Below the pieces are notes generated by a model. That model ran no database searches. It had not been told where the DNA came from and worked only from the letters and a program-made list of their open reading frames with translations. Shown here piece by piece: positions 15,348 to 33,549 of a stretch of DNA of 49,197 nucleotides. This stretch comes from Escherichia phage D2. Made by a program: the position numbers and the translations under genes. The stretch is taken from the sequence record OM475427. One strand, 5' to 3'. Numbering within the stretch: position 1 is the first letter of the stretch; each line of letters begins with the position of its first letter.

Positions 15348-15365
15348 TGCAAAATGTTTTATGTG

Positions 15366-15392: not shown

Positions 15393-15407
15393 TATGGAGC
15401 GTGAGGA

Positions 15408-18400
15408 ATGGGTAAAGGAAGCAGTAAGGGGCATACCCCGCGCGAAGCGAAGGACAACCTGAAGTCCACGCAGTTGCTGAGTGTGATCGATGCCATCAGC
15501 GAAGGGCCGATTGAAGGTCCGGTGGATGGCTTAAAAAGCGTGCTGCTGAACAGTACGCCGGTGCTGGACACTGAGGGGAATACCAACATATCCGGTGTCA
15601 CGGTGGTGTTCCGGGCTGGTGAGCAGGAGCAGACTCCGCCGGAGGGATTTGAATCCTCCGGCTCCGAGACGGTGCTGGGTACGGAAGTGAAATATGACAC
15701 GCCGATCACCCGCACCATTACGTCTGCAAACATCGACCGTCTGCGCTTTACCTTCGGTGTACAGGCACTGGTGGAAACCACCTCAAAGGGTGACAGGAAT
15801 CCGTCGGAAGTCCGCCTGCTGGTTCAGATACAACGTAACGGTGGCTGGGTGACGGAAAAAGACATCACCATTAAGGGCAAAACCACCTCGCAGTATCTGG
15901 CCTCGGTGGTGATGGGTAACCTGCCGCCGCGCCCGTTTAATATCCGGATGCGCAGGATGACGCCGGACAGCACCACAGACCAGCTGCAGAACAAAACGCT
16001 CTGGTCGTCATACACTGAAATCATCGATGTGAAACAGTGCTACCCGAACACGGCACTGGTCGGCGTGCAGGTGGACTCGGAGCAGTTCGGCAGCCAGCAG
16101 GTGAGCCGTAATTATCATCTGCGCGGGCGTATTCTGCAGGTGCCGTCGAACTATAACCCGCAGACGCGGCAATACAGCGGTATCTGGGACGGAACGTTTA
16201 AACCGGCATACAGCAACAACATGGCCTGGTGTCTGTGGGATATGCTGACCCATCCGCGCTACGGCATGGGGAAACGTCTTGGTGCGGCGGATGTGGATAA
16301 ATGGGCGCTGTATGTCATCGGCCAGTACTGCGACCAGTCAGTGCCGGACGGCTTTGGCGGCACGGAGCCGCGCATCACCTGTAATGCGTACCTGACCACA
16401 CAGCGTAAGGCGTGGGATGTGCTCAGCGATTTCTGCTCGGCGATGCGCTGTATGCCGGTATGGAACGGGCAGACGCTGACGTTCGTGCAGGACCGACCGT
16501 CGGATAAGACGTGGACCTATAACCGCAGTAATGTGGTGATGCCGGATGATGGCGCGCCGTTCCGCTACAGCTTCAGCGCCCTGAAGGACCGCCATAATGC
16601 CGTTGAGGTGAACTGGATTGACCCGAACAACGGCTGGGAGACGGCGACAGAGCTTGTTGAAGATACGCAGGCCATTGCCCGTTACGGTCGTAATGTTACG
16701 AAGATGGATGCCTTTGGCTGTACCAGCCGGGGGCAGGCACACCGCGCCGGGCTGTGGCTGATTAAAACAGAACTGCTGGAAACGCAGACCGTGGATTTCA
16801 GCGTCGGCGCAGAAGGGCTTCGCCATGTACCGGGCGATGTTATTGAAATCTGCGATGATGACTATGCCGGTATCAGCACCGGTGGTCGTGTGCTGGCGGT
16901 GAACAGCCAGACCCGGACGCTGACGCTCGACCGTGAAATCACGCTGCCATCCTCCGGTACCGCGCTGATAAGCCTGGTTGACGGAAGTGGCAATCCGGTC
17001 AGCGTGGAGGTTCAGTCCGTCACCGACGGCGTGAAGGTAAAAGTGAGCCGTGTTCCTGACGGTGTTGCTGAATACAGCGTATGGGAGCTGAAGCTGCCGA
17101 CGCTGCGCCAGCGACTGTTCCGCTGCGTGAGTATCCGTGAGAACGACGACGGCACGTATGCCATCACCGCCGTGCAGCATGTGCCGGAAAAAGAGGCCAT
17201 CGTGGATAACGGGGCGCACTTTGACGGCGAACAGAGTGGCACGGTGAATGGTGTCACGCCGCCAGCGGTGCAGCACCTGACCGCAGAAGTCACTGCAGAC
17301 AGCGGGGAATATCAGGTGCTGGCGCGATGGGACACACCGAAGGTGGTGAAGGGCGTGAGTTTCCTGCTCCGTCTGACCGTAACAGCGGACGACGGCAGTG
17401 AGCGGCTGGTCAGCACGGCCCGGACGACGGAAACCACATACCGCTTCACGCAACTGGCGCTGGGGAACTACAGGCTGACAGTCCGGGCGGTAAATGCGTG
17501 GGGGCAGCAGGGCGATCCGGCGTCGGTATCGTTCCGGATTGCCGCACCGGCAGCACCGTCGAGGATTGAGCTGACGCCGGGCTATTTTCAGATAACCGCC
17601 ACGCCGCATCTTGCCGTTTATGACCCGACGGTACAGTTTGAGTTCTGGTTCTCGGAAAAGCAGATTGCGGATATCAGACAGGTTGAAACCAGCACGCGTT
17701 ATCTTGGTACGGCGCTGTACTGGATAGCCGCCAGTATCAATATCAAACCGGGCCATGATTATTACTTTTATATCCGCAGTGTGAACACCGTTGGCAAATC
17801 GGCATTCGTGGAGGCCGTCGGTCGGGCGAGCGATGATGCGGAAGGTTACCTGGATTTTTTCAAAGGCAAGATAACCGAATCCCATCTCGGCAAGGAGCTG
17901 CTGGAAAAAGTCGAGCTGACGGAGGATAACGCCAGCAGACTGGAGGAGTTTTCGAAAGAGTGGAAGGATGCCAGTGATAAGTGGAATGCCATGTGGGCTG
18001 TCAAAATTGAGCAGACCAAAGACGGCAAACATTATGTCGCGGGTATTGGCCTCAGCATGGAGGACACGGAGGAAGGCAAACTGAGCCAGTTTCTGGTTGC
18101 CGCCAATCGTATCGCATTTATTGACCCGGCAAACGGGAATGAAACGCCGATGTTTGTGGCGCAGGGCAACCAGATATTCATGAACGACGTGTTCCTGAAG
18201 CGCCTGACGGCCCCCACCATTACCAGCGGCGGCAATCCTCCGGCCTTTTCCCTGACACCGGACGGAAAGCTGACCGCTAAAAATGCGGATATCAGTGGCA
18301 GTGTGAATGCGAACTCCGGGACGCTCAGTAATGTGACGATAGCTGAAAACTGTACGATAAACGGTACGCTGAGGGCGGAAAAAATCGTCGGGGACATTGT

Positions 18401-18797
18401 AAAGGCGGCGAGCGCGGCTTTTCCGCGCCAGCGTGAAAGCAGTGTGGACTGGCCGTCAGGTACCCGTACTGTCACCGTGACCGATGACCATCCTTTTGAT
18501 CGCCAGATAGTGGTGCTTCCGCTGACGTTTCGCGGAAGTAAGCGTACTGTCAGNCCAACAGTCATACTGGTATTCAACCTGTAAGCTGCAGGTGCTGAAG
18601 AACGGACAGGAAATCTTTCAGCAACCCGCGACGGATGTCAGCAGGGTATTTTCATCAGTCATTGATATGCCTNGTGGAGTGCAGGTATACAGATTAATCC
18701 GGCAGCGTCCGTCGTTGTTGATATTGCTTATGAAGGCTCCGGCAGTGGCGACTGGCGTACTGACGGATTCATCGTTGGGGTCGGTTATAAATTCTGA
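15408..18797 (+). CDS. J: Tail tip/host specificity protein J; apparent frameshifts near the 3' end coincide with ambiguous bases
   Basis: 1058-aa ORF 15408-18584 is lambda J-like. Frame moves to +1 near n at 18554 and back near n at 18672; the last segment (..[31 protein letters not shown]) is again in the start frame, and total length is a multiple of 3. Confidence 0.8.
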
Positions 18798-18819
18798 TTA
18801 GCCAGGTAACACAGTGTTA

Positions 18820-18850
18820 TGACAGCCCGCCGGAACCGGTGGGCTTTTTT
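18820..18850 (+). terminator. Putative rho-independent terminator downstream of J
   Basis: Hairpin GCCCGCCGG..CCGGTGGGC followed by TTTTTTGT just before the stf start; no lom-like gene is present between J and stf. Confidence 0.4.
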
Positions 18851-18855
18851 GTGGG

Positions 18856-20793
18856 GTGAATATGGCAGTAAAGATTTCAGGAGTCCTGAAAGACGGCACA
18901 GGAAAACCGGTACAGAACTGCACCATTCAGCTGAAAGCCAGACGTAACAGCACCACGGTGGTGGTGAACACGGTGGGCTCAGAGAATCCGGATGAAGCCG
19001 GGCGTTACAGCATGGATGTGGAGTACGGTCAGTACAGTGTCATCCTGCAGGTTGACGGTTTTCCACCATCGCACGCCGGGACCATCACCGTGTATGAAGA
19101 TTCACAACCGGGGACGCTGAATGATTTTCTCTGTGCCATGACGGAGGATGATGCCCGGCCGGAGGTGCTGCGTCGTCTTGAACTGATGGTGGAAGAGGTG
19201 GCGCGTAACGCGTCCGTGGTGGCACAGAGTACGGCAGACGCGAAGAAATCAGCCGGCGATGCCAGTGCATCAGCTGCTCAGGTCGCGGCCCTTGTGACTG
19301 ATGCAACTGACTCAGCACGCGCCGCCAGCACGTCCGCCGGACAGGCTGCATCGTCAGCTCAGGAAGCGTCCTCCGGCGCAGAAGCGGCATCAGCAACGTC
19401 AGAAGAAGCCTCCGCAGACAGTGAAGAGGCTTCCCGCCGTAATGCAGAGTCAGCCGCTGAAAATGCCGGAGTCGCCACCACAAAAGCGCGGGAGGCCGCA
19501 GCAGACGCAACAAAGGCCGGGCAGAAAAAGGATGAGGCTCTGTCGGCAGCGACACGAGCTGAAAAGGCGGCAGACCGCGCAGAAGCCGCAGCGGAAGTGA
19601 CTGCAGAGCCCTATGCGAATATAGTGCCGCCGCTGCCTGATGTGTGGATACCGTTTAACGATTCACTGGATATGATTGCGGGTTTTTCTCCGGGCTATAA
19701 AAAAATAGCTATTGGTGACGATGTGGTTCAGGTCGCCAGTGATAAACAGGTTAATTTCAGTCGCGCATCAACGGCAACATATATCAACAAATCTGGCGAA
19801 CTGAAAACGGCGGAAATTAATGAGCCGCGATTTGAGTGTGATGGCCTGCTTATTGAGGGACAAAGAACGAACTACATGCTCAATTCGGAAAGTCCAGCCA
19901 GCTGGGGGAAGTCATCAAACATGGATGTGCCCGAAACTGGGACGGATAGTTTTGGTTTTACTTATGGAAAGTTTGTCTGCAACGATTCTCTGGTTGGGCA
20001 AACTTCGGCTATTAATATGGCATCAATTGCTGCAACAAAGTCAGTTGATGTCTCAGGCGATAACAAGTACGTGACAACCTCATGCCGTTTTAAAACAGAA
20101 CGACAGGTAAGGTTACGTATACGGTTTGATAAGTATGATGGTAGTGCAACAACTTTTCTTGGCGATGCGTACATTGATACGCAAACGCTTGAAATTAATA
20201 TGACAGGTGGTGCTGCCGGCAGAATTACGGCACGAGTCAGGAAGGATAAGACCACGGGCTGGATTTTTGCAGAGGCAACGATTCAGGCAATTGATGGTGA
20301 GTTAAAAATAGGCTCTCAGATACAGTATTCTCCTGAGCAGGGTGGGGCAACAGTATCTGGTGACTATATTTATCTTGCCACCCCACAAGTAGAGAATGGG
20401 CCGTGTGTATCATCATTTATTATTTCAGGAGGCAGCGCAACGACAAGAGCCAGTGATTTGGTTAGTATCCCCACCAGAAATAATCTTTATAAGTTACCAT
20501 TTACTTTTTTACTTGAGATTCATAAAAACTGGGATATTGCACCAAACGCCGCACCCCGCGTGTGGGATATAGCAGCCAATACCGGGCAATCAGCAATTGC
20601 AGCAATCAACAGAGGTAGTGGTAAGTTATATATGAGTCTGTCAAACCCTTCAGGCTCGTATGTTAATAGCGCAGCGACAGATGTATTTGCAGAGAAAACC
20701 ACATTTGGATGTATTGCAAAAGCTGATGGTCACTTTCATGTGGTGACAAATGGTAAAGCGGTTAATGAAGTTTATTGTGAATATAATGGGTAA
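18856..20793 (+). CDS. stf: Side tail fiber protein (Stf-like), C-terminus bounded by IS66 inverted repeat
   Basis: N-terminal ~190 aa match lambda Stf (MAVKISGVLKDGTGKPVQNCTIQLKARRNSTTVVVNTVGSENPDEAGRYSMDVEYGQYSVILQVDGF...), then Ala/Ser-rich repeats and a divergent C-terminal domain. The stop codon TAA lies inside the IS terminal repeat (gTAAgcg). Confidence 0.75.
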   Translation: MNMAVKISGVLKDGTGKPVQNCTIQLKARRNSTTVVVNTVGSENPDEAGRYSMDVEYGQYSVILQVDGFPPSHAGTITVYEDSQPGTLNDFLCAMTEDDARPEVLRRLELMVEEVARNASVVAQSTADAKKSAGDASASAAQVAALVTDATDSARAASTSAGQAASSAQEASSGAEAASATSEEASADSEEASRRNAESAAENAGVATTKAREAAADATKAGQKKDEALSAATRAEKAADRAEAAAEVTAEPYANIVPPLPDVWIPFNDSLDMIAGFSPGYKKIAIGDDVVQVASDKQVNFSRASTATYINKSGELKTAEINEPRFECDGLLIEGQRTNYMLNSESPASWGKSSNMDVPETGTDSFGFTYGKFVCNDSLVGQTSAINMASIAATKSVDVSGDNKYVTTSCRFKTERQVRLRIRFDKYDGSATTFLGDAYIDTQTLEINMTGGAAGRITARVRKDKTTGWIFAEATIQAIDGELKIGSQIQYSPEQGGATVSGDYIYLATPQVENGPCVSSFIISGGSATTRASDLVSIPTRNNLYKLPFTFLLEIHKNWDIAPNAAPRVWDIAANTGQSAIAAINRGSGKLYMSLSNPSGSYVNSAATDVFAEKTTFGCIAKADGHFHVVTNGKAVNEVYCEYNG

Positions 20794-20874
20794 GCGTAAA
20801 CTGACCGCCGTATGTAGCCATCAGACGAGAATTGGTAACTTAGACGCCCATCTGATATAGACGGACATCTAAGT

Positions 20875-21300
20875 ATGGAATTACAGGACTGGCGAAAAGA
20901 ACCTCGTAAAAACTATTCGAATGAATTCAAACTTCGTATGGTGGAACTGGCATCACAACCTGGAGCTTGTGTTGCACAGATTGCACGTGAAAATGGCGTC
21001 AATGATAATGTTATTTTCAAATGGCTCAGGCTCTGGCAGAACGAAGGGCGTGTTTCGCGGCGTCTTCCGGTAACGACCTCTTCTGACACTGGCGTTGAAT
21101 TATTACCTGTAGAAATAACGCCGGATGAGCAGAAAGAACCTGTGGCGGCCATTGCGCCGTCTTTATCCACTTCCACTCAGACCAGAGTCAGTGCCAGTTC
21201 CTGCAAGGTGGAATTCCGTCACGGTAACATGACGCTGGAAAATCCATCGCCAGAGCTGCTCACAGTGTTGATCCGTGAACTGACCGGGAGGGGAAGATGA
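20875..21300 (+). CDS. tnpA: IS66 family accessory protein TnpA (orf1)
   Basis: 141 aa; HTH-containing N-terminus (NYSNEFKLRMVELASQPGACVAQIARENGVNDNVIFKWL) typical of IS66 orf1. Confidence 0.85.
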   Translation: MELQDWRKEPRKNYSNEFKLRMVELASQPGACVAQIARENGVNDNVIFKWLRLWQNEGRVSRRLPVTTSSDTGVELLPVEITPDEQKEPVAAIAPSLSTSTQTRVSASSCKVEFRHGNMTLENPSPELLTVLIRELTGRGR

Positions 21301-21647
21301 TCTCACTCCCATCAGGTACCCGTATCTGGCTCGTTGCCGGCGTTACCGATATGCGTAAATCCTTCAACGGACTGGGAGAACAGGTACAACATGTGCTGAA
21401 TGATAATCCCTTCTCCGGTCACCTGTTTATCTTCCGTGGCCGACGGGGTGACACCGTCAAAATTCTTTGGGCTGATGCTGATGGTCTGTGCCTGTTCACC
21501 AAACGCCTGGAGGAAGGCCAGTTTATCTGGCCTGCGGTACGTGACGGCAAGGTATCCATTACCCGCTCGCAACTGGCAATGCTCCTCGATAAGCTGGACT
21601 GGCGTCAGCCAAAAACATCCAGCCGTAACTCACTGACAATGTTGTAA
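21297..21647 (+). CDS. tnpB: IS66 family accessory protein TnpB (orf2)
   Basis: 116 aa; MISLPSGTRIWLVAGVTDMRKSFNGLGEQVQ... characteristic IS66 Orf2; 4-nt overlap with tnpA. Confidence 0.85.
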   Translation: MISLPSGTRIWLVAGVTDMRKSFNGLGEQVQHVLNDNPFSGHLFIFRGRRGDTVKILWADADGLCLFTKRLEEGQFIWPAVRDGKVSITRSQLAMLLDKLDWRQPKTSSRNSLTML

Positions 21648-21677
21648 AAAACTCCTGACCGCATTATAAAAACGGTC

Positions 21678-23277
21678 ATGAGTCAGAAATACCTCATTCG
21701 CATCGCAGAGCTGGAAAGGTTGCTCTCTGAGCAGGCTGAAGCCCTCCGTCAGAAAGACCAGCAACTGAGTCTGGTTGAAGAGACGGAAGCCTTCCTGCGC
21801 TCTGCACTGACACGTGCCGAAGAAAAGATCGAAGAAGATGAACGGGAAATAGAACATCTGCGGGCTCAGATAGAAAAACTGCGCCGGATGCTGTTCGGTA
21901 CCCGTTCTGAAAAACTGCGTCGTGAAGTTGAACTGGCTGAGGCTCTGCTGAAACAACGTGAACAGGACAGCGATCGTTACAGTGGGCGGGAAGACGATCC
22001 TCAGGTTCCCCGCCAGTTGCGACAGTCGCGCCATCGTCGTCCGTTACCGGCACACCTTCCCCGTGAAATACACCGCCTGGAGCCAGAAGAAAGCTGTTGC
22101 CCGGAGTGTGGCGGTGAGCTGGATTATCTGGGGGAAGTCAGCGCTGAACAGCTGGAACTGGTGAGCAGTGCCCTGAAAGTGATCCGCACAGAACGGGTAA
22201 AAAAAGCCTGTACAAAATGTGACTGTATTGTTGAAGCACCGGCGCCGTCCCGCCCGATAGAGCGTGGTATCGCGGGCCCCGGATTACTTGCCCGCGTGTT
22301 AACGGGAAAATACTGCGAACATCTGCCACTGTATCGTCAGAGTGAAATCTTTGCCCGCCAGGGTGTCGAACTGAGCCGGGCCTTACTCTCCAACTGGGTT
22401 GACGCGTGCTGCCAGTTAATGACACCGGTGAATGATGCCCTGTACCGTTATGTAATGAATACCCGCAAGGTTCACACTGATGACACACCGGTAAAGGTAC
22501 TGGCACCGGGTCAGAAAAAGGCGAAAACAGGGCGTATCTGGACGTATGTCCGGGATGATCGCAATGTGGGTTCGTCATCTCCTCCAGCGGTCTGGTTCGC
22601 GTACTCGCCGAACCGGCAGGGGAAACACCCGGAGCAACACCTCCGCCCCTTCCGGGGTATCCTGCAGGCGGATGCGTTCACAGGTTACGACAGGTTGTTC
22701 AGTGCAGAACGTGAAGGTGGTGCACTGACAGAAGTTGCGTGCTGGGCCCATGCCCGGCGAAAAATCCACGATGTATACATCAGCAGCAAAAGTGCGACGG
22801 CAGAAGAAGCCCTGAAGCGAATCAGTGAACTGTACGCCATCGAGGATGAAATACGGGGATTACCGGAGTCAGAGCGTCTTGCGGTCAGGCAGAAGAAGAG
22901 CAAACTGTTACTGGACTCACTGCATGCATGCATGGTGGAGAAAAATGCCACGCTATCCAAAAATCCAGACTGGGAGAATGGTTCAGCTGTGTACTGAATC
23001 AGTGGGGCGCACTCTGTTATTACAGTGTTGACGGTCAGGCGGAGGCAGACATAATGCCGCGGAAAAAGCCCTTTGTGCCATCTGTCTCGGAAATAAAAAC
23101 TTTATGTTCTTCGGCGGCGAGCGCAGTGCACTGTTGTATGGGCTTATCGGCACTTGCCTTCTGAACGNNATNGATCCGGAAGCGTATCTGCGCCATATNC
23201 TGAGCATACTGCCGGAATGGCCCTCCAACCGTGTTGACGAACTCCTGCCATGGAACGTAGTTCTCACCAATAAATAA
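21678..23277 (+). pseudogene. tnpC: IS66 family transposase TnpC, interrupted by two frameshifts
   Basis: Frame 0 ORF 21678-22997 (439 aa, coiled-coil N-terminus, zinc-finger CPECG), continues in another frame (KSRLGEWFSCVLNQWGALCYYSVDGQAEAD) and then a third (NAAEKAL..FMFFGGERSALLYGLIGTCLLN..YLRH.LSILPEWPSNRVDELLPWNVVLTNK*). The shifts at ~22955 and ~23045 are not at n positions. Confidence 0.7.
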
Positions 23278-23442
23278 GCGTCAATACGGTGCTCCGTTGA
23301 CGCTTACTTTAATCCGTTTTCTGAGCTTAGATTTTTCTGTTCCTACCCAGACCGTGGATTTGGAATTCATTTTTTGTCAGGTCAATGCTAATCGTTAAAA
23401 CGGCCATAACGCACCTCCACTGGAAGGTTTATCAGAGGTCGT

Positions 23443-23721
23443 ATGAAAGATTTAACTTTGAAGTTTCATGACAAACTGCAGTTTAAGGCCTTCCTGTCAT
23501 CTCTTGGCTGGGCGGAAGATGAAGACCTCCAGAATAAACTGTTAGTTGATGAAATTGGTTTCACCTACACAGAAACAGGGGTAACAGAAGAGGGAGAACC
23601 TGTCTGTATCCGGAATGATGGTTATTTTGTCAACATTCGCATTCTTGATGACTTGTTTGATGTTTCTGTATTCTCTGATTATGTCGTGGAGCTGGAAACA
23701 CCGCTTCGGGAATGGAGCTGA
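23443..23721 (+). CDS. Hypothetical protein (92 aa)
   Basis: ORF with ATG start between IS66 and sitD; no family recognised. Confidence 0.3.
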   Translation: MKDLTLKFHDKLQFKAFLSSLGWAEDEDLQNKLLVDEIGFTYTETGVTEEGEPVCIRNDGYFVNIRILDDLFDVSVFSDYVVELETPLREWS

Positions 23722-23733
23722 AAGGAGGAAATA

Positions 23734-24027
23734 ATGGATATAAGCCCCTTACTTCATGCACTTTGTGCTGTGGCTGCGCAGATACTGGTTGGTCTTTTTA
23801 CCGGAAACTGGGCTTACGGAGCGATAGCCGGTTGTACGTTCTTCATTGCGCGTGAACATACCCAGGCAGAATATCGCTGGATTGAAATGTTCGGGCATGG
23901 CAAGCGAATGAATATGCCGTGGTGGGGCGGTTTTGATCCGCGAGCTTGGGATGTGGCAAGCCTGATGGATTTTGCTGTGCCGGTGGTGGCGTGTCTGCTG
24001 GTCTGGCTGTTGGTTAATCGTGGGTGA
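23734..24027 (+). CDS. Hypothetical membrane protein (97 aa)
   Basis: ORF with hydrophobic segments; preceded by GGAGG-like RBS (aaaggaggaaataATG); no family recognised. Confidence 0.3.
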   Translation: MDISPLLHALCAVAAQILVGLFTGNWAYGAIAGCTFFIAREHTQAEYRWIEMFGHGKRMNMPWWGGFDPRAWDVASLMDFAVPVVACLLVWLLVNRG

Positions 24028-24119
24028 AAAAAGGTGANCTGNANATNGCAACGGAGGAAGAAACCNCGTTGCTGGAAGCCNGGAANAAGTATCGGGTGTT
24101 GCTGNNCTCGGATGTTGTG

Positions 24120-24977
24120 CTAATTGGGTGATAACAGATCCTGTGTATGGGAGTTTCCCTTTTTGCGTGCGTTGATGCTGGTAACGGCAAACGTCATGAT
24201 GAACAAAACCGCGAATAAGACGACAATCGTCGGAGCTGGTGCGCTGTCGATAAAAAAGGACAACCAGACACCAGTCATTGACACTATTACCGATATGCCA
24301 GTCGCCAGTAGGAGCGCAATATGAAAGCGTTGTGTCAGGAGTACCGCAATGGCGCCAGGCGCAATGAGCAGAGAAATGGAGAGAATGATACCTACCGCTT
24401 TCAGCGTCGCCACAATGGTCAGAGAGACCATGCACAGCAGCCCATAATGCAGCCATCTCGTATGCAAACCGCTTACCTGCGCCTGTTGATAATCAAAGCT
24501 GAACAGCAAAAAATCCCGCCATTTTACGCTAATAACAAGTGTAACCAGCCCGGCAATAANCATCGTCTGGATTATATCGCCGATGGTTATCCCGAGCATG
24601 TCGCCGAANAGAATATGGTCAAGATGTNCGTCTGGTTTGACTGCAATATACAAGATCAGANCTGCGGCAAACATGCCAGANAANACNATCCCCATCACTG
24701 TATCTTGCTTGATTCGGCTGTTGTCTTTCAGGTATCCCGTCGCCACCGCGCAGAATACTCCGGCGACGAATGCCCCTGTAGCCAAAGGTAACCCCAGAAT
24801 CCAGGCAAGCACGATGCCAGGAAAAACCGCATGACTCATCGCGTCACCCATCAGTGCCCAACCTTTCAGGACCAGAAAGACCGACAGCAGCGCACAGGGT
24901 ATGGAAACTACCAGTGAAATCAGCAGTGCGTGACTCATAAAGGTGAACTGCAGTGGCTCCAGTAATAATGCCATCAT
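24120..24977 (-). CDS. sitD: Mn/Fe ABC transporter permease SitD (contains ambiguous bases)
   Basis: 285-aa polytopic membrane protein, paralogous to the upstream permease; several n/X positions. Confidence 0.85.
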   Translation of the reverse strand: MMALLLEPLQFTFMSHALLISLVVSIPCALLSVFLVLKGWALMGDAMSHAVFPGIVLAWILGLPLATGAFVAGVFCAVATGYLKDNSRIKQDTVMGXXXSGMFAAXLILYIAVKPDXHLDHIXFGDMLGITIGDIIQTMXIAGLVTLVISVKWRDFLLFSFDYQQAQVSGLHTRWLHYGLLCMVSLTIVATLKAVGIILSISLLIAPGAIAVLLTQRFHIALLLATGISVIVSMTGVWLSFFIDSAPAPTIVVLFAVLFIMTFAVTSINARKKGNSHTQDLLSPN

Positions 24978-25831
24978 GAGCGATCCTCCAGCGCCTTATG
25001 CGCACGCCGACGATTTGCCAAAAGCCCATGGGTGGGCGCAAAGACAAATGCTAAAAGAAACAGCAGTGTCTGCGCCACCACGATGATTCCACCTGTCGCG
25101 CCGTCCAGAAAGTAACTGACCCACGCGCCGAGGAAACTGGTTACACTGCCAATAGTTACAGCAATCATGAGCAGGCGGGGAAAACGATCGGTTAACAACC
25201 ATGCTGTTGCACCGGGAGTCACCACCAGACAGATCACCAGAAAGGCACCAACCGTTTGCAGCGCCGCAACGGTCGAAACCGACAGCAGGGTGAAGAAGAG
25301 GAGTTTTAATCTGCCCGGATGCAATCCAATAGCACGGGCGTGATTCTCGTCGAAAAAGGTCACCATAAGATCTTTCCATTTGAAAAAAAGCACGATGATC
25401 GAGAGAATGCCAATGATAGTGAGTTGCAGGATATCCGCCGGATCGATTGCCAGAATATTGCCCAGGACGATGGTCTGAATGTTCACAGATGTCGGGTTCA
25501 ATGACACCATAAACAGCCCCAGGCCAAAAAAGGACGAGAAGATCAGACCGATGATGGCATCTTCTTTTAAGCGGGTGCGTTGGTTAAGAAACAGCATGCT
25601 GCCCGCAGCCAGTCCGCCGGAAAAGAAGGCTCCCAGAGAAAACGGAAGCCCCAGCATATATGCCCCCGCAACACCCGGGACAATAGAGTGCGACAACGCA
25701 TCGCCAATCAGCGACCAGCCTTTTAGCATCAGATAGCATGACAGGAAAGCGCAGAGACCGCCGACCATCGCCGAGACCCACATCGCATTGAGCATATATT
25801 CATAGCTGAAGGGTTCCAGTAGCACGTTCAT
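24974..25831 (-). CDS. sitC: Mn/Fe ABC transporter permease SitC
   Basis: 285 aa, ABC-3 family permease; 4-nt overlaps with sitB and sitD. Confidence 0.9.
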
Positions 25832-26655
25832 CTTTCTTCCCTCTGCACCGCTGACGGTCGATGAGCCACAAAAGGGCGTTCATCGTCAGTAATAATGCTT
25901 TCTTCCGAGCCGTTAAGTGTGACATGGCGCAGTACGCCGCTAAAAGCCAGCTCTAGGTTCTCGGCTGTAAAAGTGGTGTCTGTCGGCCCGCTTGCCAGGA
26001 CGGTGCCTTTGACCATGACCGTATAATCGCAAAATGTCGTGACGGATCCGAGATTGTGTGTTGAGACAAGCATCGTTTTGCCTTCCGCGCGTAACTCCCT
26101 CAACAGGCTGATGATTTTGGCTTCGGTTTTCACATCAACGCCAGTAAAAGGTTCATCCAGCAGGATCACATCACCCTGCTGTGCAATCGCTCTCGCCAGA
26201 AAGACGCGTTTCTTTTGTCCACCGGAAAGCTCGCCGATTTGTCGATGGCGAAAATTCACCATATCGACACGTTCCAGCGCATCGGTGACAATTTGACGAT
26301 CCCTCTTTTTGGCGATACGCAACATACCCATATGCCCATAGCGGCCCATCATCACCACATCTTCCACCAGTACAGGAAATGACCAGTCAACCTCTTCTGA
26401 CTGAGGGACGTAGGCAACCAGGTTTTTCTGTAACGCCTGTCGCGTGGGAATACCCAGAACAGATATCTTTCCGCTGGTCAGACGCACAAATCCCATAATC
26501 GCTTTAAACAACGTCGATTTTCCGGAACCGTTTACCCCAACCAGAGCGGCAATAGATCCACTTGGTACTGTGAAGGATGCATCGCGCAGTGCTGTGTGCC
26601 CGTTATGCCAGGTGACAGCAACATCATTAACGACAATGCCTGCAGATTGCATCAT
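25828..26655 (-). CDS. sitB: Mn/Fe ABC transporter ATP-binding protein SitB
   Basis: Walker [13 protein letters not shown] signature LSGGQKKR, Walker B ILLDEP. Confidence 0.9.
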
Positions 26656-27569
26656 TATTTCTCCCTTTTCCCGGCTTTAATTCCCTGTACCAGCGTACTG
26701 GTAGTAACCTTAAGAAGGTCGATATACGTCGGTACCGGGCCGTTTTCTGTGCTCAGGGAATCGACATAGAGCACACCGCCGTAGTGTGCGCCGGTTTCAC
26801 GCGCAACCTGACGCGCTGGTTTATCGGAAATCGTACTCTCGCTAAAGACTGCCGGGATATGATTTTTCTTAACTATATCAACAACCTTACGTACCTGCTG
26901 CGGTGTTCCTTGTTGATCGGCATTAATCGGCCACAGATAAAGCTCTTTTAGCCCCAAATCGCGTGCGAGATAAGAAAAAGCCCCTTCACTGGTGACCATC
27001 CATCGCTGATTCTCAGGGAGTTCCGTAATCTGCTTACGCAGGGGGGCAAGGGTTTGGGTAATCTTGGCTTTATAAGTATCGGCATTGCGTTGGTAGGTTT
27101 GTGCATTTGCCGGATCGTATTTTATCAACGCATCACGAATATTATCGACGTAAATCAGAGCATTATCTGGCGACATCCATGCATGGGGGTTAGGTTTGCC
27201 CTCATAGGGTCCTTCGGTGATCCCTACAGGCGTCACACCCGAAGAGACAATTACTTCTGGAACCCCATTGAGATGCTGGTAAAAGCGTTGGAACCACAAT
27301 TCCAGATTCATACCATTGGCGAGAATCAGTTGTGCCCCCTGCGCACGTTTAATATCGCCAGGGGTAGGCTGATACTCATGAATTTCTGCACCAGGCTTGG
27401 TTATGGATGAGACTTCTGCAGCATCTCCCGCCACGTTTTTGGCCATATCCGCGATGATGGTAAATGTTGTAATGACCTTAAATTTTTCAGTTGCACTTGC
27501 CTGAAATGCGATCGAGCAGGTGAGTGCGAGGCCCCCCAAGAGCATGGTTACTTTTTTTATTGAGCGCAT
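26655..27569 (-). CDS. sitA: Periplasmic Mn/Fe-binding protein SitA
   Basis: 304 aa with signal peptide; cluster-9 metal-binding protein, first gene of a sitABCD-type operon. Confidence 0.9.
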
Positions 27570-27601
27570 AATTTAGTACCTATAGTGAGCAAAATTAGAA
27601 C

Positions 27602-27623
27602 AAACATAGCAACGGCTATGTTT
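27602..27623 (-). promoter_or_regulatory. MntR box upstream of sitA
   Basis: Perfect inverted repeat AAACATAGC-N4-GCTATGTTT about 33 bp upstream of the sitA start, matching the E. coli MntR operator pattern. Confidence 0.6.
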
Positions 27624-27645
27624 TATAGCATAACCTATACAGAAT

Positions 27646-27664
27646 GAAAATGATTATCATTAAC
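27646..27664 (-). promoter_or_regulatory. Fur box upstream of sitA
   Basis: GAAAATGATTATCATTAAC matches the Fur consensus GATAATGATAATCATTATC at 16 of 19 positions. Confidence 0.55.
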
Positions 27665-27762
27665 ATCTTTGAGGCCCAAAACAGGGATTAGTTTGTTTCC
27701 TGCTGGATGAAAGGACTCTTGGGATAGCACATGCCGCACGAAGAGCAGCATTACATGATGTT

Positions 27763-28002
27763 TTGTCGAATGAGCTACGAATCCTGATAGAAATACGAAA
27801 CAAGCTAGCACATGGACAATGGATCTATCCCTTCAATAATGAAGGAAATACTGTGGACCCTGATAAATATAAATTAATCAATAAAGAAAACTTGCAGTCA
27901 CTCCAATTCAAATATTCATTAGCACAGCATTTAGTTGACGCTGTACATGATTTGGTTGTAAGTCCTACGACATTCGAACGAGATTTCGAAAGCCATTTTT
28001 AA
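27763..28002 (+). CDS. Hypothetical protein fragment with HEPN-like Rx4HG motif
   Basis: 79-aa ORF with a TTG start only; contains IRNKLAHGQW (R-x4-H-G) reminiscent of HEPN/Abi families; AT-rich surroundings. Possibly a gene remnant. Confidence 0.25.
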   Translation: MSNELRILIEIRNKLAHGQWIYPFNNEGNTVDPDKYKLINKENLQSLQFKYSLAQHLVDAVHDLVVSPTTFERDFESHF

Positions 28003-28366
28003 AAATTATATCAAGTACGAACAAACTTAGTGACAAAAGACTACGAAAAATATAAAACAATTTTAGTATTAAGTAGAGAGAAATTTCGTTCTGCTAGGAC
28101 GCAGCAATAGGTTCATGAGATTCTCTGATACTTGTTACCTTAGTAAGCCTTAAATTTTTAAAAATTCTTTTACGTCCACTCCTCGCTCATAACAGGCATT
28201 AACTACATTTATCTTCATTGGCTATGCAAGTCGTAATAAAAGGTGGGACAAAACTGAGACACATAAGCTCTCACAAAGGTCTGCAAGGCCTCACATGTAT
28301 TGAGATGTTAATAAAATGTAGACTTGTAATTTTGATATAAATGGTAGATAAAACCTTTCCCCACCC

Positions 28367-28647
28367 CTGGTGCAAACATCGGTGACGAATGCGCCCTGTT
28401 TGAAGCCACCCACGGTACTGCGCCGAAATATGCCGGTCAGGACAAAGTAAATCCTGGCTCTATTATTCTCTCCGCTGAGATGATGCTGCGCCATATGGGT
28501 TGGACTGAAGCGGCTGACCTGATTGTTAAAGGTATGGAAGGCGCAATCAATGCCAAGACCGTAACTTATGACTTCGAACGTCTGATGGAAGGCGCTAAGC
28601 TGCTGAAATGTTNCGAGTTTGGCGACGCGATCATCAAGAACATGTAA
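28367..28647 (+). pseudogene. icd: 3' fragment of icd (isocitrate dehydrogenase), last ~93 codons, at the phage attachment site
   Basis: Translation [92 protein letters not shown] matches the Icd C-terminus; upstream sequence is unrelated to icd. Confidence 0.85.
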
Positions 28648-28671
28648 TCACTACATGTGTTAAATATTTAA

Positions 28672-28698
28672 ACGGGCGTGTTATACGCCCGTTGTTTT
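28672..28698 (+). terminator. Rho-independent terminator after the icd 3' end
   Basis: Hairpin ACGGGCGTG-TTAT-ACGCCCGT followed by TGTTTTAT. Confidence 0.5.
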
Positions 28699-28753
28699 AT
28701 GATGATGTAAAATCTTCCCCAAAACTTTCCCCAAAACNNNNNNTGGCTATTTT

Positions 28754-29896
28754 CTATGCTGTTTTGATATCTACGATAATCCAGTCTTTACCACGATCAT
28801 CATTGTATCGGTCGGTCATTTTTCTGGATTTATGGCCTAACAACTTTTGCGTATCCAGACCCTGTTCCCGATATAACCGTTCTGACAGAGATCGCTGCTC
28901 ATGAAATGTGGGCGCAGTTCCTTGCTCCCATTTTATGCCACATTTTTCCCTGGCCTTTTTAAAAGCCGTTGTCAGAGTATTCGCAGAAACCTGGTCTCCT
29001 CTGTTTGCTTGAGAGGTTGTGTGACGGTAATGGACCAGATATTTACTAACAACAGCATCCCTGCACTGAGATATAACTTCACGAAGGGTAATATTCAGAG
29101 CATCGCATTTCAGGTTAAGCGGAATAGCAAGTTTTGAACCGGTTTTTTCCTGAGTAATGTGCAACATGTCGTCCCAGATATCAGAGAATTTCAAATTGCA
29201 GATATCGCCTAAACGTTGTCCAGTAACAAGAGCAAGTAGCATGCCGCATTTTAAATAGGGCTGCCGTCTGCTTACGCTTTCAAATATTGCCTGCCATTCG
29301 GGCAGTGATAATCTTTGGCGGTTTACTCGATTTCGCGGTTGTTTTGTTGCCTGCGCTGGGTTAAATCCTGGCGGAACATGTCCTGCGTGTTGTGCTTCTT
29401 TGAAGACGTCGATTAACACCATTCTCACGACTTGCGCCATCCTGTTATGACCTTCAGCCTTTACAGCATCAATTATTTCGGCAATATCAAGTGCGGTAAT
29501 ATCCTTGAGGTGTTGCATTCCACAATGCTCACGGAAAAGACGAATGGGTTTGCCTTTTTGCCGATAGGAGTTGGGTCTTAGTTCATTATGTTGCAGCCTG
29601 TCCTCCTGGATAGAAATATATTTATCAAGCCATTCTGTCACCGTAATGTCTGAGCGCCTGCCTTTCATTCTTTCCAGACGCTCATTGACGCTTAATATTT
29701 GTCGGGTACGTTGTTCAGCAATAATGGTATTTGCTTCAGTAGCAACTTGTTTTGCTTCATTCNCATCAGTTCCTAAGCTATGAAAACGACCGGATAGTGG
29801 ATGTTTGTATTGCCAATATACCTTTCCGGTTCGCTTATCTAATTTGCAATATAAATTGGGTATAGAGATTTTGTGAGATCGGGGTCTAGCAGCCAT
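28754..29896 (-). CDS. int: Tyrosine site-specific integrase (e14 IntE-like)
   Basis: 380 aa; C-terminal catalytic region with conserved R..HxxR..Y (LLGHKSRKMTDRY); 3' end converges on the icd fragment. Confidence 0.9.
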   Translation of the reverse strand: MAARPRSHKISIPNLYCKLDKRTGKVYWQYKHPLSGRFHSLGTDXNEAKQVATEANTIIAEQRTRQILSVNERLERMKGRRSDITVTEWLDKYISIQEDRLQHNELRPNSYRQKGKPIRLFREHCGMQHLKDITALDIAEIIDAVKAEGHNRMAQVVRMVLIDVFKEAQHAGHVPPGFNPAQATKQPRNRVNRQRLSLPEWQAIFESVSRRQPYLKCGMLLALVTGQRLGDICNLKFSDIWDDMLHITQEKTGSKLAIPLNLKCDALNITLREVISQCRDAVVSKYLVHYRHTTSQANRGDQVSANTLTTAFKKAREKCGIKWEQGTAPTFHEQRSLSERLYREQGLDTQKLLGHKSRKMTDRYNDDRGKDWIIVDIKTA

Positions 29897-30122
29897 CAGC
29901 GATTATCCGTTGGAGTTTTGGGTTTGCGTTTATTGGGAGTTGCGGTTCTGCAAGCGTTCCTACAAAACGGGAATTTCGGTCAATCATCCAGTAGCGACCA
30001 ACTTTTATAGCGGGTGGGGCCATCATTTTCCCTTGCGCGTATTTTTTCAGAACTCGCTCACTTGGTGCTAAGTCCCCAAATTCTTCTTTAGCCCAGTCCT
30101 GTAAAGTGATTAGTCGAGACAT
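29886..30122 (-). CDS. xis: Excisionase / AlpA-like DNA-binding protein
   Basis: 78-aa ORF directly upstream of and overlapping int by 11 nt, in the excisionase position. Confidence 0.6.
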   Translation of the reverse strand: MSRLITLQDWAKEEFGDLAPSERVLKKYAQGKMMAPPAIKVGRYWMIDRNSRFVGTLAEPQLPINANPKLQRIIADGC

Positions 30123-30261
30123 TTGTCCTCCTCTTAGCTGCTGAGGGAGTTTGTGACCGATATATCTGACATGATATTAAGCTCATGGCAGGTACATCTC
30201 TTGACTGGTCATAGAGATAAATTTAATGCTGAGAAATGCAGTATTGAATTTATCAAATTTT

Positions 30262-30549
30262 CTATTTCCTGCGTATGGCACGTAACTTCTTAATGTGTTC
30301 TGCCGTTTCGATCTCTTCTGCTATCCGATCTGCATCAGCTTTATTCACAGGTTCAAAGTCATGATTAAAGCGGACGTTCTCCTGGTCGCGGCGTTTGATG
30401 TATTGCTGGTTTCTTTCCCGTTCATCCAGCAGTTCCAGCACAATCGATGGTGTTACCAATTCATGGAAAAGGTCTGCGTCAAATCCCCAGTCGTCATGCA
30501 TTGCCTGCTCTGCCGCTTCACGCAGTGCCTGAGAGTTAATTTCGCTCAC
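30262..30549 (-). CDS. Hypothetical early protein (95 aa)
   Basis: Acidic ORF in the xis-to-exo early region; overlaps the upstream gene by 4 nt. Confidence 0.4.
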   Translation of the reverse strand: MSEINSQALREAAEQAMHDDWGFDADLFHELVTPSIVLELLDERERNQQYIKRRDQENVRFNHDFEPVNKADADRIAEEIETAEHIKKLRAIRRK

Positions 30550-30767
30550 TTCGAACCTCTCTGTTTACTGATAAGTTCCAGATCCTCCTGGCAACTTGCA
30601 CAAGTCCGACAACCCTGAACGACCAGGCGTCTTCGTTCATCTATCGGATCGCCACACTCACAACAATGAGTGGCAGATATAGCCTGGTGGTTCAGGCGGC
30701 GCATTTTTATTGCTGTGTTGCGCTGTAATTCTTCTATTTCTGATGCTGAATCAATGATGTCTGCCAT
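30546..30767 (-). CDS. DksA/TraR-family C4 zinc-finger protein
   Basis: 73 aa with CxxC..17..CxxC (CCECGDPIDERRRLVVQGCRTCASC). Confidence 0.6.
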   Translation of the reverse strand: MADIIDSASEIEELQRNTAIKMRRLNHQAISATHCCECGDPIDERRRLVVQGCRTCASCQEDLELISKQRGSK

Positions 30768-30817
30768 CTTTCATTAATCCCTGAACTGTTGGTTAATACG
30801 CTTGAGGGTGAATGCGA

Positions 30818-30843
30818 ATAATAAAAAAGGAGCCTGTAGCTCC
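30818..30843 (-). terminator. Putative rho-independent terminator in the leftward early operon
   Basis: On the minus strand, hairpin GGGAGCUACAGGCUCC followed by UUUUUUAUUAUU. Confidence 0.4.
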
Positions 30844-30865
30844 CTGATGATTTTGCTTTTCATGT

Positions 30866-31048
30866 TCATCGTTCCTTAAAGACGCCGTTTAACATGCCGA
30901 TTGCCAGGCTTAAATGAGTCGGTGTGAATCCCATCAGCGTTACCGTTTCGCGGTGCTTCTTCAGTACGCTACGGCAAATGTCATCGACGTTTTTATCCGG
31001 AAACTGCTGTCTGGCTTTTTTTGATTTCAGAATTAGCCTGACGGGCAA
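30866..31048 (-). CDS. Lambda orf60a-like protein
   Basis: 60-aa ORF; sequence recalled as lambda orf60a (MPVRLILKSKKARQQFPDKNVDD...). Confidence 0.5.
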   Translation of the reverse strand: MPVRLILKSKKARQQFPDKNVDDICRSVLKKHRETVTLMGFTPTHLSLAIGMLNGVFKER

Positions 31049-31178
31049 TGCTGCGAAGGGCGTTTTCCTGCTGAGGTGTCATTGAACAAGTCCCATGTCG
31101 GCAAGCATAAGCACACAGAATATGAAGCCCGCTGCCAGAAAAATGCATTCCGTGGTTGTCATACCTGGTCTCTCTCAT
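30993..31178 (-). CDS. Lambda orf61-like protein
   Basis: 61-aa ORF; overlaps neighbours as in the lambda orf61/orf63 cluster. Confidence 0.45.
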   Translation of the reverse strand: MRETRYDNHGMHFSGSGLHILCAYACRHGTCSMTPQQENALRSIARQANSEIKKSQTAVSG

Positions 31179-31350
31179 CTGCTTCTGCTTTCGCCACCAT
31201 CATTTCCAGCTTTTGTGAAAGGGATGCGGCTAACGTATGAAATTCTTCGTCTGTTTCTACTGGTATTGGCACAAACCTGATTCCAATTTGAGCAAGGCTA
31301 TGTGCCATCTCGATACTCGTTCTTAACTCAACAGAAGATGCTTTGTGCAT
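31159..31350 (-). CDS. Lambda orf63-like protein
   Basis: 63-aa ORF, MHKASSVELRTSIEMAHSLAQIGIRFVPIPVETDEEFHTLAASL... Confidence 0.5.
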   Translation of the reverse strand: MHKASSVELRTSIEMAHSLAQIGIRFVPIPVETDEEFHTLAASLSQKLEMMVAKAEADERDQV

Positions 31351-31501
31351 ACAGCCCCTCGTTTATTATTTATCTCCTCAGCCAGCCGCTGTGCTTTCAG
31401 TGGATTTCGGATAACAGAAAGGCCGGGAAATACCCAGCCTCGCTTTGTAACGGAGTAGACGAAAGTGATTGCGCCTACCCGGATATTATCGTGAGGATGC
31501 G

Positions 31502-32182
31502 TCATCGCCATTGCTCCCCAAATACAAAACCAATTTCAGCCAGTGCCTCGTCCATTTTTTCGATGAACTCCGGCACGATCTCGTCAAAACTCGCCATGTA
31601 CTTTTCATCCCGCTCAATCACGACATAATGCAGGCCTTCACGCTTCATACGCGGGTCATAGTTGGCAAAGTACCAGGCATTTTTTCGCGTCACCCACATG
31701 CTGTACTGCACCTGGGCCATGTAAGCTGACTTTATGGCCTCGAAACCACCGAGCCGGAACTTCATGAAATCCCGGGAGGTAAACGGGCATTTCAGTTCAA
31801 GGCCGTTGCCGTCACTGCATAAACCATCGGGAGAGCAGGCGGTACGCATACTTTCGTCGCGATAGATGATCGGGGATTCAGTAACATTCACGCCGGAAGT
31901 GAATTCAAACAGGGTTCTGGCGTCGTTCTCGTACTGTTTTCCCCAGGCCAGTGCTTTAGCGTTAACTTCCGGAGCCACACCGGTGCAAACCTCAGCAAGC
32001 AGGGTGTGGAAGTAGGACATTTTCATGTCAGGCCACTTCTTTCCGGAGCGGGGTTTTGCTATCACGTTGTGAACTTCTGAAGCGGTGATGACGCCGAGCC
32101 GTAATTTGTGCCACGCATCTTCCCCCTGTTCGACAGCTCTCACATCGATCCCGGTACGCTGCAGGATAATGTCCGGTGTCAT
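31502..32182 (-). CDS. exo: Lambda exonuclease (Red-alpha)
   Basis: 226 aa, near-identical to lambda Exo ([65 protein letters not shown]...). Confidence 0.95.
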
Positions 32183-32964
32183 GCTGCCACCTTCTGCTCT
32201 GCGGCTTTCTGTTTCAGGAATCCAAGAGCTTTTACTGCTTCGGCCTGTGTCAGTTCTGACGATGCACGAATGTCGCGGCGAAATATCTGGGAACAGAGCG
32301 GCAATAAGTCGTCATCCCATGTTTTATCCAGGGCGATCAGCAGAGTGTTAATCTCCTGCATGGTTTCATCGTTAACCGGAGTGATGTCGCGTTCCGGCTG
32401 ACGTTCTGCAGTGTATGCAGTATTTTCGACAATGCGCTCGGCTTCATCCTTGTCATAGATACCAGCAAATCCGAAGGCCAGACGGGCACACTGAATCATG
32501 GCTTTATGACGTAACATCCGTTTGGGATGCGACTGCCACGGCCCCGTGATTTCTCTGCCTTCGCGAGTTTTGAATGGTTCGCGGCGGCATTCATCCATCC
32601 ATTCGGTAACGCAGATCGGATGATTACGGTCCTTGCGGTAAATCCGGCATGTACAGGATTCATTGTCCTGCTCAAAGTCCATGCCATCAAACTGCTGGTT
32701 TTCATTGATGATGCGGGACCAGCCATCAACGCCCACCACCGGAACGATGCCATTCTGCTTATCAGGAAAGGCGTAAATTTCTTTCGTCCACGGATTAAGG
32801 CCGTACTGGTTGGCAACGATCAGTAATGCGATGAACTGCGCATCGCTGGCATCACCTTTAAATGCCGTCTGGCGAAGAGTGGTGATCAGTTCCTGTGGGT
32901 CGACAGAATCCATGCCGACACGTTCAGCCAGCTTCCCAGCCAGCGTTGCGAGTGCAGTACTCAT
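32179..32964 (-). CDS. bet: Recombination protein Bet (Red-beta)
   Basis: 261 aa, lambda Bet ([66 protein letters not shown]...). Confidence 0.95.
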
Positions 32965-32969
32965 TCGTT

Positions 32970-33386
32970 TTATACCTCTGAATCAATATCAACCTGGTGG
33001 TGAGCAATGGTTTCAACCATGTACCGGATGTGTTCTGCCATGCGCTCCTGAAACTCAACATCGTCATCAAACGCACGGGTAATGGATTTTTTGCTGGCCC
33101 CGTGGCGTTGCAAATGATCGATGCATAGCGATTCAAACAGGTGCTGGGGCAGGCCTTTTTCCATGTCGTCTGCCAGTTCTGCCTCTTTCTCTTCACGGGC
33201 GAGCTGCTGGTAGTGACGCGCCCAGCTCTGAGCCTCAAGACGATCCTGAATGTAATAAGCGTTCATGGCTGAACTCCTGAAATAGCTGTGAAAATATCGC
33301 CCGCGAAATGCCGGGCTGATTAGGAAAACAGGAAAGGGGGTTAGTGAATGCTTTTGCTTGATCTCAGTTTCAGTATTAATATCCAT
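32970..33386 (-). CDS. gam: Gam, RecBCD inhibitor
   Basis: 138 aa, lambda Gam ([76 protein letters not shown]...). Confidence 0.9.
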
Positions 33387-33484
33387 TTTTTATAAGCGTC
33401 GACGGCTTCACGAAACATCTTTTCATCGCCAATAAAAGTGGCGATAGTGAATTTAGTCTGGATAGCCATAAGTGTTTGATCCAT
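33341..33484 (-). CDS. kil: Kil (FtsZ-targeting host-killing protein)
   Basis: 47 aa, [47 protein letters not shown], matching lambda Kil; overlaps the gam start by 46 nt as in lambda. Confidence 0.85.
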
Positions 33485-33549
33485 TCTTTGGGACTCCTGG
33501 CTGATTANNTNTNNNNAANGNGTTTCCATCCGTCACGTAATTTACGCAT
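33451..33549 (-). CDS. cIII: cIII-like protein (N-terminally different from lambda; interrupted by n bases; boundaries approximate)
   Basis: Minus-strand ATG preceded by AGGAG, reading MRKLRDGWK..., matching the lambda cIII core (ITRKLRDGWKRLIDILNQ). An n run (33508-33521) interrupts the reading. Confidence 0.45.

Follow-up and report, generated by a model that had tools for sequence, protein, structure and literature searches.

A phage-borne sitABCD manganese/iron uptake operon with its own predicted Fur and MntR operators in Escherichia phage D2

The genome record of Escherichia phage D2 (OM475427), analysed here over its whole stretch of 49,197 nucleotides (the window), carries four adjacent minus-strand genes, sitA, sitB, sitC and sitD, next to the icd' fragment and attachment site of the phage (Table 1). 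The reading frames overlap by 1 nt between sitA and sitB, where the stop and start codons form the junction TAATG, and by 4 nt at both sitB/sitC and sitC/sitD in the map of open reading frames (ORFs), an arrangement that is the usual sign of translational coupling and suggests it here. The A-B-C-D order, with one ATP-binding cassette (ABC) ATPase and two ABC-3 permeases encoded by genes with overlapping stop and start codons, points together with the protein families to an importer of manganese and iron of the SitABCD/YfeABCD type (cluster A-I). SitB scores 589 bits against the NCBIfam model NF011630, 'manganese/iron ABC transporter ATP-binding protein', for which the cut-off is 393. The best solved relative of SitA is YfeA of Yersinia pestis (5UXS; E=4e-125, residues 24-297 aligned), and SitA residues H64, H129, E195 and D270 align with YfeA positions 76, 141, 207 and 282, which we take, from structural work on YfeA, to be the His-His-Glu-Asp ligands of an Mn/Fe-type site. 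Sites of this composition mark the Mn/Fe type of binding protein, His-rich sites the Zn type. The four metal ligands are thus conserved between SitA and YfeA; the yfe genes differ in being chromosomal and, according to PMC3852070, in being controlled by Fur alone, as Yersinia is without MntR. The same paper states that transport of both Mn2+ and Fe2+ has been reported for the SitABCD orthologues of Salmonella, avian pathogenic Escherichia coli and Shigella.

The window contains 58 undetermined bases (Ns), and those in sitD lie at 24560, 24609, 24628, 24661, 24681, 24684 and 24687. The four genes were translated and compared with those of phage Lambda_4A7 (NC_049946.1; 4A7 below), E. coli A13 and phage 21 (OL657228.1), and the lengths are identical. 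The first three proteins, SitA to SitC, match their 4A7 and A13 counterparts at 100% identity, and the sole differences in SitD are five X residues at 97, 99, 106, 117 and 140. These alleles are widespread in E. coli. Since the lengths equal those of the references and all remaining residues match, with zero stops, the Ns conceal no frameshift and represent substitutions; the complete operon claimed in a preliminary description of this DNA, which had asked that the N positions in sitD be checked for frameshifts and stops, is therefore present as four intact ORFs of the expected Pfam and NCBIfam families. A mixture of phage and plasmid sit alleles as the source of the Ns was also ruled out, as only three of the nine N positions within 24093-27705 coincide with sites at which the alleles differ.

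Two motifs for host metal regulators lie within 110 bp of the sitA start. The first, AAACATAGCAACGGCTATGTTT (box 2), is a palindrome with 0 mismatches, expected 0.01 times per shuffled window when up to 3 mismatches are allowed; it is located 33-54 bp 5' of the sitA ATG and adjoins the predicted -10 hexamer. It fits perfectly the MntR operator palindrome AACATAGC-N4-GCTATGTT quoted in PMC1698941, which gives the enterobacterial MntR consensus as AACATAGCnnnnGCTATGTT, citing Ikeda 2005. The second motif is a Fur box whose sequence in the sitA sense, GTTAATGATAATCATTTTC, matches GATAATGATAATCATTATC at 17/19 positions and at 16/19 on the plus strand (chance count 0.01). The perfect palindrome and the 16/19 Fur match had both been noticed in the preliminary description, and both hold, the latter improving when read on the sitA strand. 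Supplementary Fig. 7 of PMC6969025 indicates the same Fur box.

Conservation was assessed by fetching sitA loci from other genera and examining their upstream regions. An ATAGC-N4-GCTAT core occurs 40-85 bp from the start codon in all of the 20 Enterobacterales promoters, and a Fur-like box lies 20-40 bp further upstream in about half of them, the Pantoea sitA promoters in this comparison showing no good Fur-box match. The core of box 2 is kept in 23/23 sitA promoters, and the Fur core AATGATAAT(C/T)ATTT in 11/11 aligned promoters; in this 11-promoter alignment, with a mean column identity of 54%, the columns that never vary are located within the Fur core and the MntR cores. Both motifs are real and non-random, and orthologous promoters conserve them. 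Neither motif was found in the alphaproteobacterial sit promoters that were fetched, which is consistent with the control of these genes by Mur (PMC1698941).

A third site (box 1), overlooked in the preliminary description, has a core with 1 mismatch exactly 19 bp upstream of the core of box 2. Two cores at this spacing are present in 22 of 23 enterobacterial sitA promoters, including those of phage 21, the IncF plasmid, Salmonella, Klebsiella, Enterobacter, Erwinia and Pantoea, whereas mntH of E. coli K-12 has one core. The upstream box is the better palindrome in some genera and is perfect in Enterobacter. A one-mismatch core alone is unremarkable, with 1.07 expected per window; box 1 is credible as an MntR-type site because of its fixed register and conservation, and may be regarded as a candidate MntR site. 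Two MntR sites at sitA are not mentioned in the open literature searched, a search outside which the primary papers on sit regulation fall.

The putative sigma-70 promoter of sitA was read from the sequence, its hexamers matching 9/12 consensus positions. On this placement the Fur box would overlap the -35 hexamer, box 1 would cover the spacer and the -10 hexamer, and box 2 would cover the start of the transcript. If transcribed, the minus-strand RNA of box 2 could pair into a 9-bp hairpin that precedes a U-rich stretch (-9.8 kcal/mol); it was flagged by the terminator scan, and its z of -1.7 against shuffles is not significant alone.

Related promoters share much of this layout. The four-gene ABC importer is the same in Salmonella enterica (SPI-1), Shigella and E. 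coli. In PMC8970401 and PMC3852070, sitABCD of Salmonella, Shigella and avian pathogenic E. coli is described as repressed by MntR and Fur; PMC3852070 adds that MntR represses both MntH and SitABCD, and PMC8970401 describes a Salmonella sitA-lacZ fusion assayed in fur and mntR mutants, citing the dual repression from earlier work. In the promoter of Salmonella arizonae, a Fur-like box likewise precedes a pair of ATAGC-N4-GCTAT cores with a spacing of 19 bp. The Salmonella system differs in that its copy is chromosomal, lying in a pathogenicity island and not in a phage, that SitA is only about 75% identical, and that box 2 departs from the full 22-mer at 3 positions, the perfect palindrome being specific to the E. 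coli phage lineage. IncF (ColV-type) plasmids carry both MntR-type boxes and the Fur box within a shared module, but are flanked by IS1 and crcB and have one mismatch in the core of box 2 (ATAGT), with a perfect core in box 1. At mntH of E. coli K-12, the 9-bp half sites AAACATAGC and GCTATGTTT, read from NC_000913.3, are identical to those of box 2, and a Fur box likewise stands upstream of the MntR box; mntH is under dual Fur/MntR repression (Patzer and Hantke 2001, as cited in PMC3852070). It differs from sit in having a single MntR palindrome instead of two at 19 bp, and MntH is an NRAMP symporter, not an ABC importer. By homology to Salmonella and Shigella, the phage copy of sit would be regulated by Fur and MntR.

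The extent of the sit insert can be read from its neighbours. The IncF plasmid copy is homologous over exactly 24093-27705 (3.6 kb, 96.8% identity, all three operator sites included), that is, from 27 bp beyond the sitD stop to 136 bp 5' of the sitA start, and phage 21 and the window part at 27706. On the left, the lambdoid phages 2G7b and mEp460_4F5, which lack sit, have the flank of the window up to 24104 and 24012, respectively, and carry other cargo before the integrase: DinI and another integrase in mEp460_4F5, and a methyltransferase, a hydrolase and OmpT in 2G7b. Because related phages hold different cargo at the same flank, the slot is a variable cargo site. The G+C content of the module is about 50%, that of the flanks 35-46%, with 35% in 27700-28300. 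By these borders, sit is a discrete insert of 3.6 kb, and its control region always goes with it. The module was found in 2337 of 5426 complete E. coli genomes (43%), at 1683 chromosomal and 1061 plasmid places, and the operon with both phage flanks in 1067 of the 5426 (about a fifth). On the comparison suggested in the preliminary description, namely whether sit moves with this prophage, both phage flanks accompany the operon in those 1067 genomes, and it occurs in plasmids and other contexts as well. Among the latter, sitABCD stands behind the tail fibre genes of another lambdoid prophage, at the right end of that prophage and beside uspF/ompN, and in another strain it is flanked by insertion sequences beside the aerobactin genes iucCD-iutA, in line with reviews (PMC7545054) of an unstable 'PAI sit' that occupies several places in the chromosome. 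Record pMY504-2 (99.6% identity) was rejected as a plasmid copy: it is a linear record with chromosomal genes beside a prophage.

The window as a whole is a complete lambdoid genome of 49.2 kb in lambda virion order: terminase, head and tail genes, J, side tail fibre, IS66, two small ORFs, sitDCBA, icd', attP, int, xis, recombination genes, cI/cro immunity, O/P, Q, an ompC-like porin, lysis genes and cos. It is collinear with phages 4A7, Lambda_4C10, 1W and 3W, all of which form plaques, and with the classic phage 21; sitDCBA occupies the same place in all five. At least 25 records of the phage collection have sit in this slot, including phage 21 and isolates of Mathieu et al., from whose coliphage collection 4A7 and Lambda_4C10 come. 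The placement of the operon given earlier, between the tail fibre gene/IS66 and the icd fragment in a region of accessory genes, is confirmed; it lies in the b region before icd'-attP-int. The tyrosine integrase beside an attP that carries icd' identifies the phage as a lambdoid with icd integration of the phage 21/e14 type. The contiguous order sit-icd'-attP-int is that of the excised form, and the junction in the window is therefore attP and not one of an integrated prophage. Since a full phage genome with attP is present, 'phage cargo' is more accurate than the earlier term 'prophage cargo', of which the assignment to a phage-derived unit stands and the prophage state does not. An integrated counterpart is available in E. 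coli A13, in which the same phage type is integrated at icd. There no further operon separates sit from the displaced 3' fragment of icd at attR, beyond which lie ycgX, bluR and bluF.

Likeness to 4A7 extends to the order of stf, IS66, two small ORFs, sitDCBA, icd', attP and int, to the Sit proteins and the Fur box, and to the DNA of 23434-28363 (99.66% identical). The window differs from 4A7 in its tail genes, ea22-to-kil region, O/P/ren and cos/nu1, which match phage lambda itself at 99.6-100% identity, and it alone has the Ns and two 120-nt patches of host-like sequence. Phage 21 likewise carries sitDCBA (21967-25416 of its record) between the side tail fibre module and icd'-attP-int, with 99.1% DNA identity over 23434-27706 of the window and 97% in int-xis. 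It differs in that its stf is without IS66, in its immunity, Q and lysis modules, and in another 1.5-kb segment, including an ORF of 252 amino acids, between the sit promoter and the P arm. The remaining features of the region are listed in Table 1.

Table 1. Features of the sit region of phage D2 (positions in the window; aa, amino acids)
Feature	Position	Strand	Description
sitA	26655-27569	minus	304 aa; periplasmic Mn/Fe substrate-binding protein; Pfam ZnuA PF01297, E=9e-86
sitB	25828-26655	minus	275 aa; ABC ATPase; Pfam ABC_tran PF00005; NCBIfam equivalog NF011630
sitC	24974-25831	minus	285 aa; permease; Pfam ABC-3 PF00950, E=6e-83
sitD	24120-24977	minus	285 aa; permease; Pfam ABC-3 PF00950, E=1e-71; 7 Ns
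MntR operator box 2	27602-27623	unstranded	predicted; perfect palindrome AAACATAGC-N4-GCTATGTTT
MntR-type box 1	27621-27642 (core 27625-27638)	unstranded	predicted; imperfect; ATAGG-TTAT-GCTAT on sitA strand
Fur box	27646-27664	unstranded	predicted; 16/19 plus strand, 17/19 sitA strand
Putative sigma-70 promoter	27622-27650	minus	-35 TTTTCA 27650-27645; 17-nt spacer; -10 TATAAA 27627-27622
Mobile sit module	24093-27705	minus	operon, 136-bp promoter/operator region, 27-bp tail
Side tail fibre gene	18856-20793	plus	Pfam phage_tail_N PF08400; 3' end cut by IS66
IS66-family element	20790-23307	plus	three ORFs; HTH_Tnp_1 PF01527, TnpB_IS66 PF05717, DDE_Tnp_IS66 PF03050
Two small phage ORFs	23443-24027	plus	92 and 97 aa; end of tail fibre module
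icd 3' fragment	28369-28647	plus	translates to Icd C-terminus; genuine phage copy about 28484-28647
attP P'-arm repeats	28714-28743	unstranded	CTTCCCCAAAA type; partly N; aligned to annotated phage 21 attP (OL657228.1)
Integrase	28754-29896	minus	lambda-type; Arm-DNA-bind_1 PF09003, Phage_integrase PF00589
Excisionase	29886-30122	minus	Pfam Exc

Taken together, these features make it very probable that sitABCD is a self-contained lysogenic-conversion cassette, or 'moron', in the non-essential b region of a temperate coliphage of the lambda/phage 21 type. The slot is non-essential, sit is present in some and absent from other related phages, sit is oriented away from the late (tail) operon, and promoter-like -35 and -10 hexamers with host operators are predicted inside the module. 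Periplasmic SitA would bind Mn2+ or Fe2+ at its His-His-Glu-Asp site and pass the metal to the SitC/SitD permease pair, with the SitB ATPase supplying the power. The cassette would supply its own 136-bp control region, comprising the putative sigma-70 promoter, one Fur box and two MntR-type palindromes; in a lysogen, Fe2+-Fur and Mn2+-MntR of the host would silence the operon when either metal is plentiful, and limitation of iron or manganese would release it from repression. After integration sit is at the attR end, where 0.9 kb separates it from the displaced icd fragment. We infer the position of the promoter, the binding and regulation at the phage copy, and a fitness benefit to the lysogen. 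Several observations weigh on the other side. A simple scan detected no terminator-like site downstream of sitD (24028-24119), so that one classic feature of a moron is missing; box 1 of the phage is a weak palindrome, with 1 mismatch in the core and 9 of 18 against the full consensus; the putative sit promoter hexamers match at only 9/12 positions and were passed over by the consensus scan, which demands T at position 6 of the -10; and the record has 58 Ns and two artefactual-looking 120-nt patches and is a candidate lambda hybrid, the viability of the genome being only presumed.

A more elaborate control than one Fur and one MntR box can provide, combined with early leftward read-through into sit when the phage is not integrated, is a possible but doubtful extension of this picture. 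The arrangement of two palindromes at 19 bp is kept from Erwinia and Pantoea to Salmonella, IncF plasmids and the phage, and is absent from mntH. If both boxes bind MntR, perhaps cooperatively or on opposite faces of the helix, the response to manganese could be steeper than that of mntH or have another threshold, and if the read-through is true, sit would be expressed in two ways, under metal control in lysogens and under phage control during infection.

Set against 4A7 and phage lambda, the window proves to be a mosaic. The sequence is 99.0-100% identical to phage lambda over 7497-18605, 18674-19396, 30375-33546, 37454-39291 and 48677-49197, which hold the tail genes Z to J, ea22 to kil, O/P/ren, and cos with the start of nu1; the stf'-IS66-sit-attP-int-xis block (19397-30374), the immunity region and the Q/lysis region are 4A7-like. 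The window may therefore be a hybrid of lambda and a 21-type phage, or a mixed-template consensus. The segments 30375-30571, 33348-33546, 37455-37673 and 39111-39291, at first sight unrelated to 4A7 and of equal length, were set aside as lambda alleles and not artefacts. The two host-like patches are of another kind. The first (23314-23433), just right of the IS66 end, differs from the 3' end of stf in 4A7 and corresponds to the chromosomal flank of an IS66 remnant; 3212 E. coli genomes contain it at 100% identity, joined without a break to the end of the element. The second (28364-28483) is 100% E. coli icd coding sequence, which stands upstream of the genuine phage icd' and replaces P-arm sequence; the icd fragment is thereby 120 nt longer than in 4A7 and phage 21, and aligns with their icd' from 28484. 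Its junction at 28363/28364 is absent from 5426 E. coli genomes, 50,697 phage records and IMG/VR. Both patches swap phage sequence base for base and then return to register, and Ns cluster nearby. On the most economical reading of these patterns, they are probably consensus artefacts, in which host reads overhanging a shared repeat were written in. An aberrant excision like that of lambda-gal was considered for 28364-28483 and judged less likely, since it leaves the patch of equal length at the IS66 end unexplained; taken by itself, the icd patch may stem from a genuine excision of this kind.

These host-derived patches next to repeats, the 58 Ns and the mosaic of lambda-identical and 4A7-like segments would suit a block of host or island DNA misassembled onto a phage, or one residing on a decayed prophage remnant, as would the unstable 'PAI sit' and the copies flanked by insertion sequences near aerobactin genes mentioned above. 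Such an origin is nevertheless very unlikely, because 23434-28363 is collinear with and nearly identical to 4A7, the same slot is occupied in the many phage records cited, and the artefact-like patches are only 120 nt long and lie outside the operon, which neither of them touches.

It is extremely improbable that the MntR and Fur motifs are chance or vestigial and that the operon is constitutive or otherwise controlled in the phage. The chance counts are low and both motifs are close to sitA; their position and cores are kept across genera while the flanks diverge, the same arrangement recurs at K-12 mntH, and Salmonella sitA fusions were assayed in fur and mntR mutants in PMC8970401, which cites repression by both regulators from earlier work. 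That functionless matches can occur is shown by the only other Fur-like match in the window, 16/19 at 48809-48827 (GTAGATGATAATCATTATC), immediately ahead of the cohesive end in the cos region of lambda, which is probably a chance resemblance. A primary role of sit in the lytic cycle, as an auxiliary metabolic gene expressed by read-through from pL/int in the circular phage, would fit the attP form, in which sit lies downstream of int/xis on the same minus strand, in the position and orientation of the early b-region genes ea47, ea31 and ea59 of lambda, with no strong minus-strand terminator found by scan between int and sitA except the icd hairpin at 28671-28693, yet it is scarcely credible given that the host-type promoter/operator set is kept at 97-100% identity in phages, plasmids and chromosomes, which argues that selection maintains sit's own promoter, that integration parts sit from pL, that a periplasmic-binding-protein importer has little time to act in a lytic cycle, and that no antiterminator was identified in the analysis.

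The cassette reading accords with what is known of this phage group. Mathieu et al. 2020 (PMC6969025) found sitABCD on 70% of gut lambda-like coliphages, including Lambda_4A7, and termed it a moron; a Fur box upstream of the operon was shown there for four phages, 4A7 among them, and MntR is unmentioned in that paper. Phage-borne sitABCD with a Fur box was thus already published in 2020 for the same phage group, and the window therefore adds no new biology. The modest additions are the exact limits of a 3.6-kb module common to phages and plasmids and, in sit promoters, a further MntR-type site that is conserved. In extraintestinal E. coli, Shigella and Salmonella, sitABCD is an acknowledged factor in fitness and virulence, and its carriage by active, plaque-forming temperate phages explains the spread of a complete and probably correctly regulated metal uptake system among gut E. 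coli.

Among the neighbouring features, the side tail fibre gene is 99.2% identical to stf of phage 21 up to 20789, and the IS66 element is inserted about 130 nt before the end of that gene. The element has the ends GTAAGCG...CGCTTAC, and in 4A7 an 8-bp duplication TATAATGG can be seen. The transposase ORF of the element is shorter in the window, with 439 amino acids against 537 in 4A7, near Ns at 23168-23199. The two small ORFs at 23443-24027 are common to the sit-less phages mEp460_4F5 and 2G7b. At the other border of the module, 27706-28002 is an AT-rich remnant of the 3' part of an ORF, with an Rx4H motif (EIRNKLAH) and a frame that is open across the border; it has 72% protein identity to an unannotated stretch of a plasmid of the cyanobacterium Kovacikia and is possibly what is left of a HEPN-like gene. 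Searches of Pfam and PADLOC assigned no family to the small flanking ORFs, to this remnant or to ORF 31 of phage 21, and scans of the whole window for Rfam families and tRNAs gave zero matches. Two further genes are candidate cargo: the ompC-like porin (45222-46304) between Q and the lysis genes, and a small multidrug-efflux (QacE/EmrE-like) gene at 39181-39537, as annotated in 4A7.

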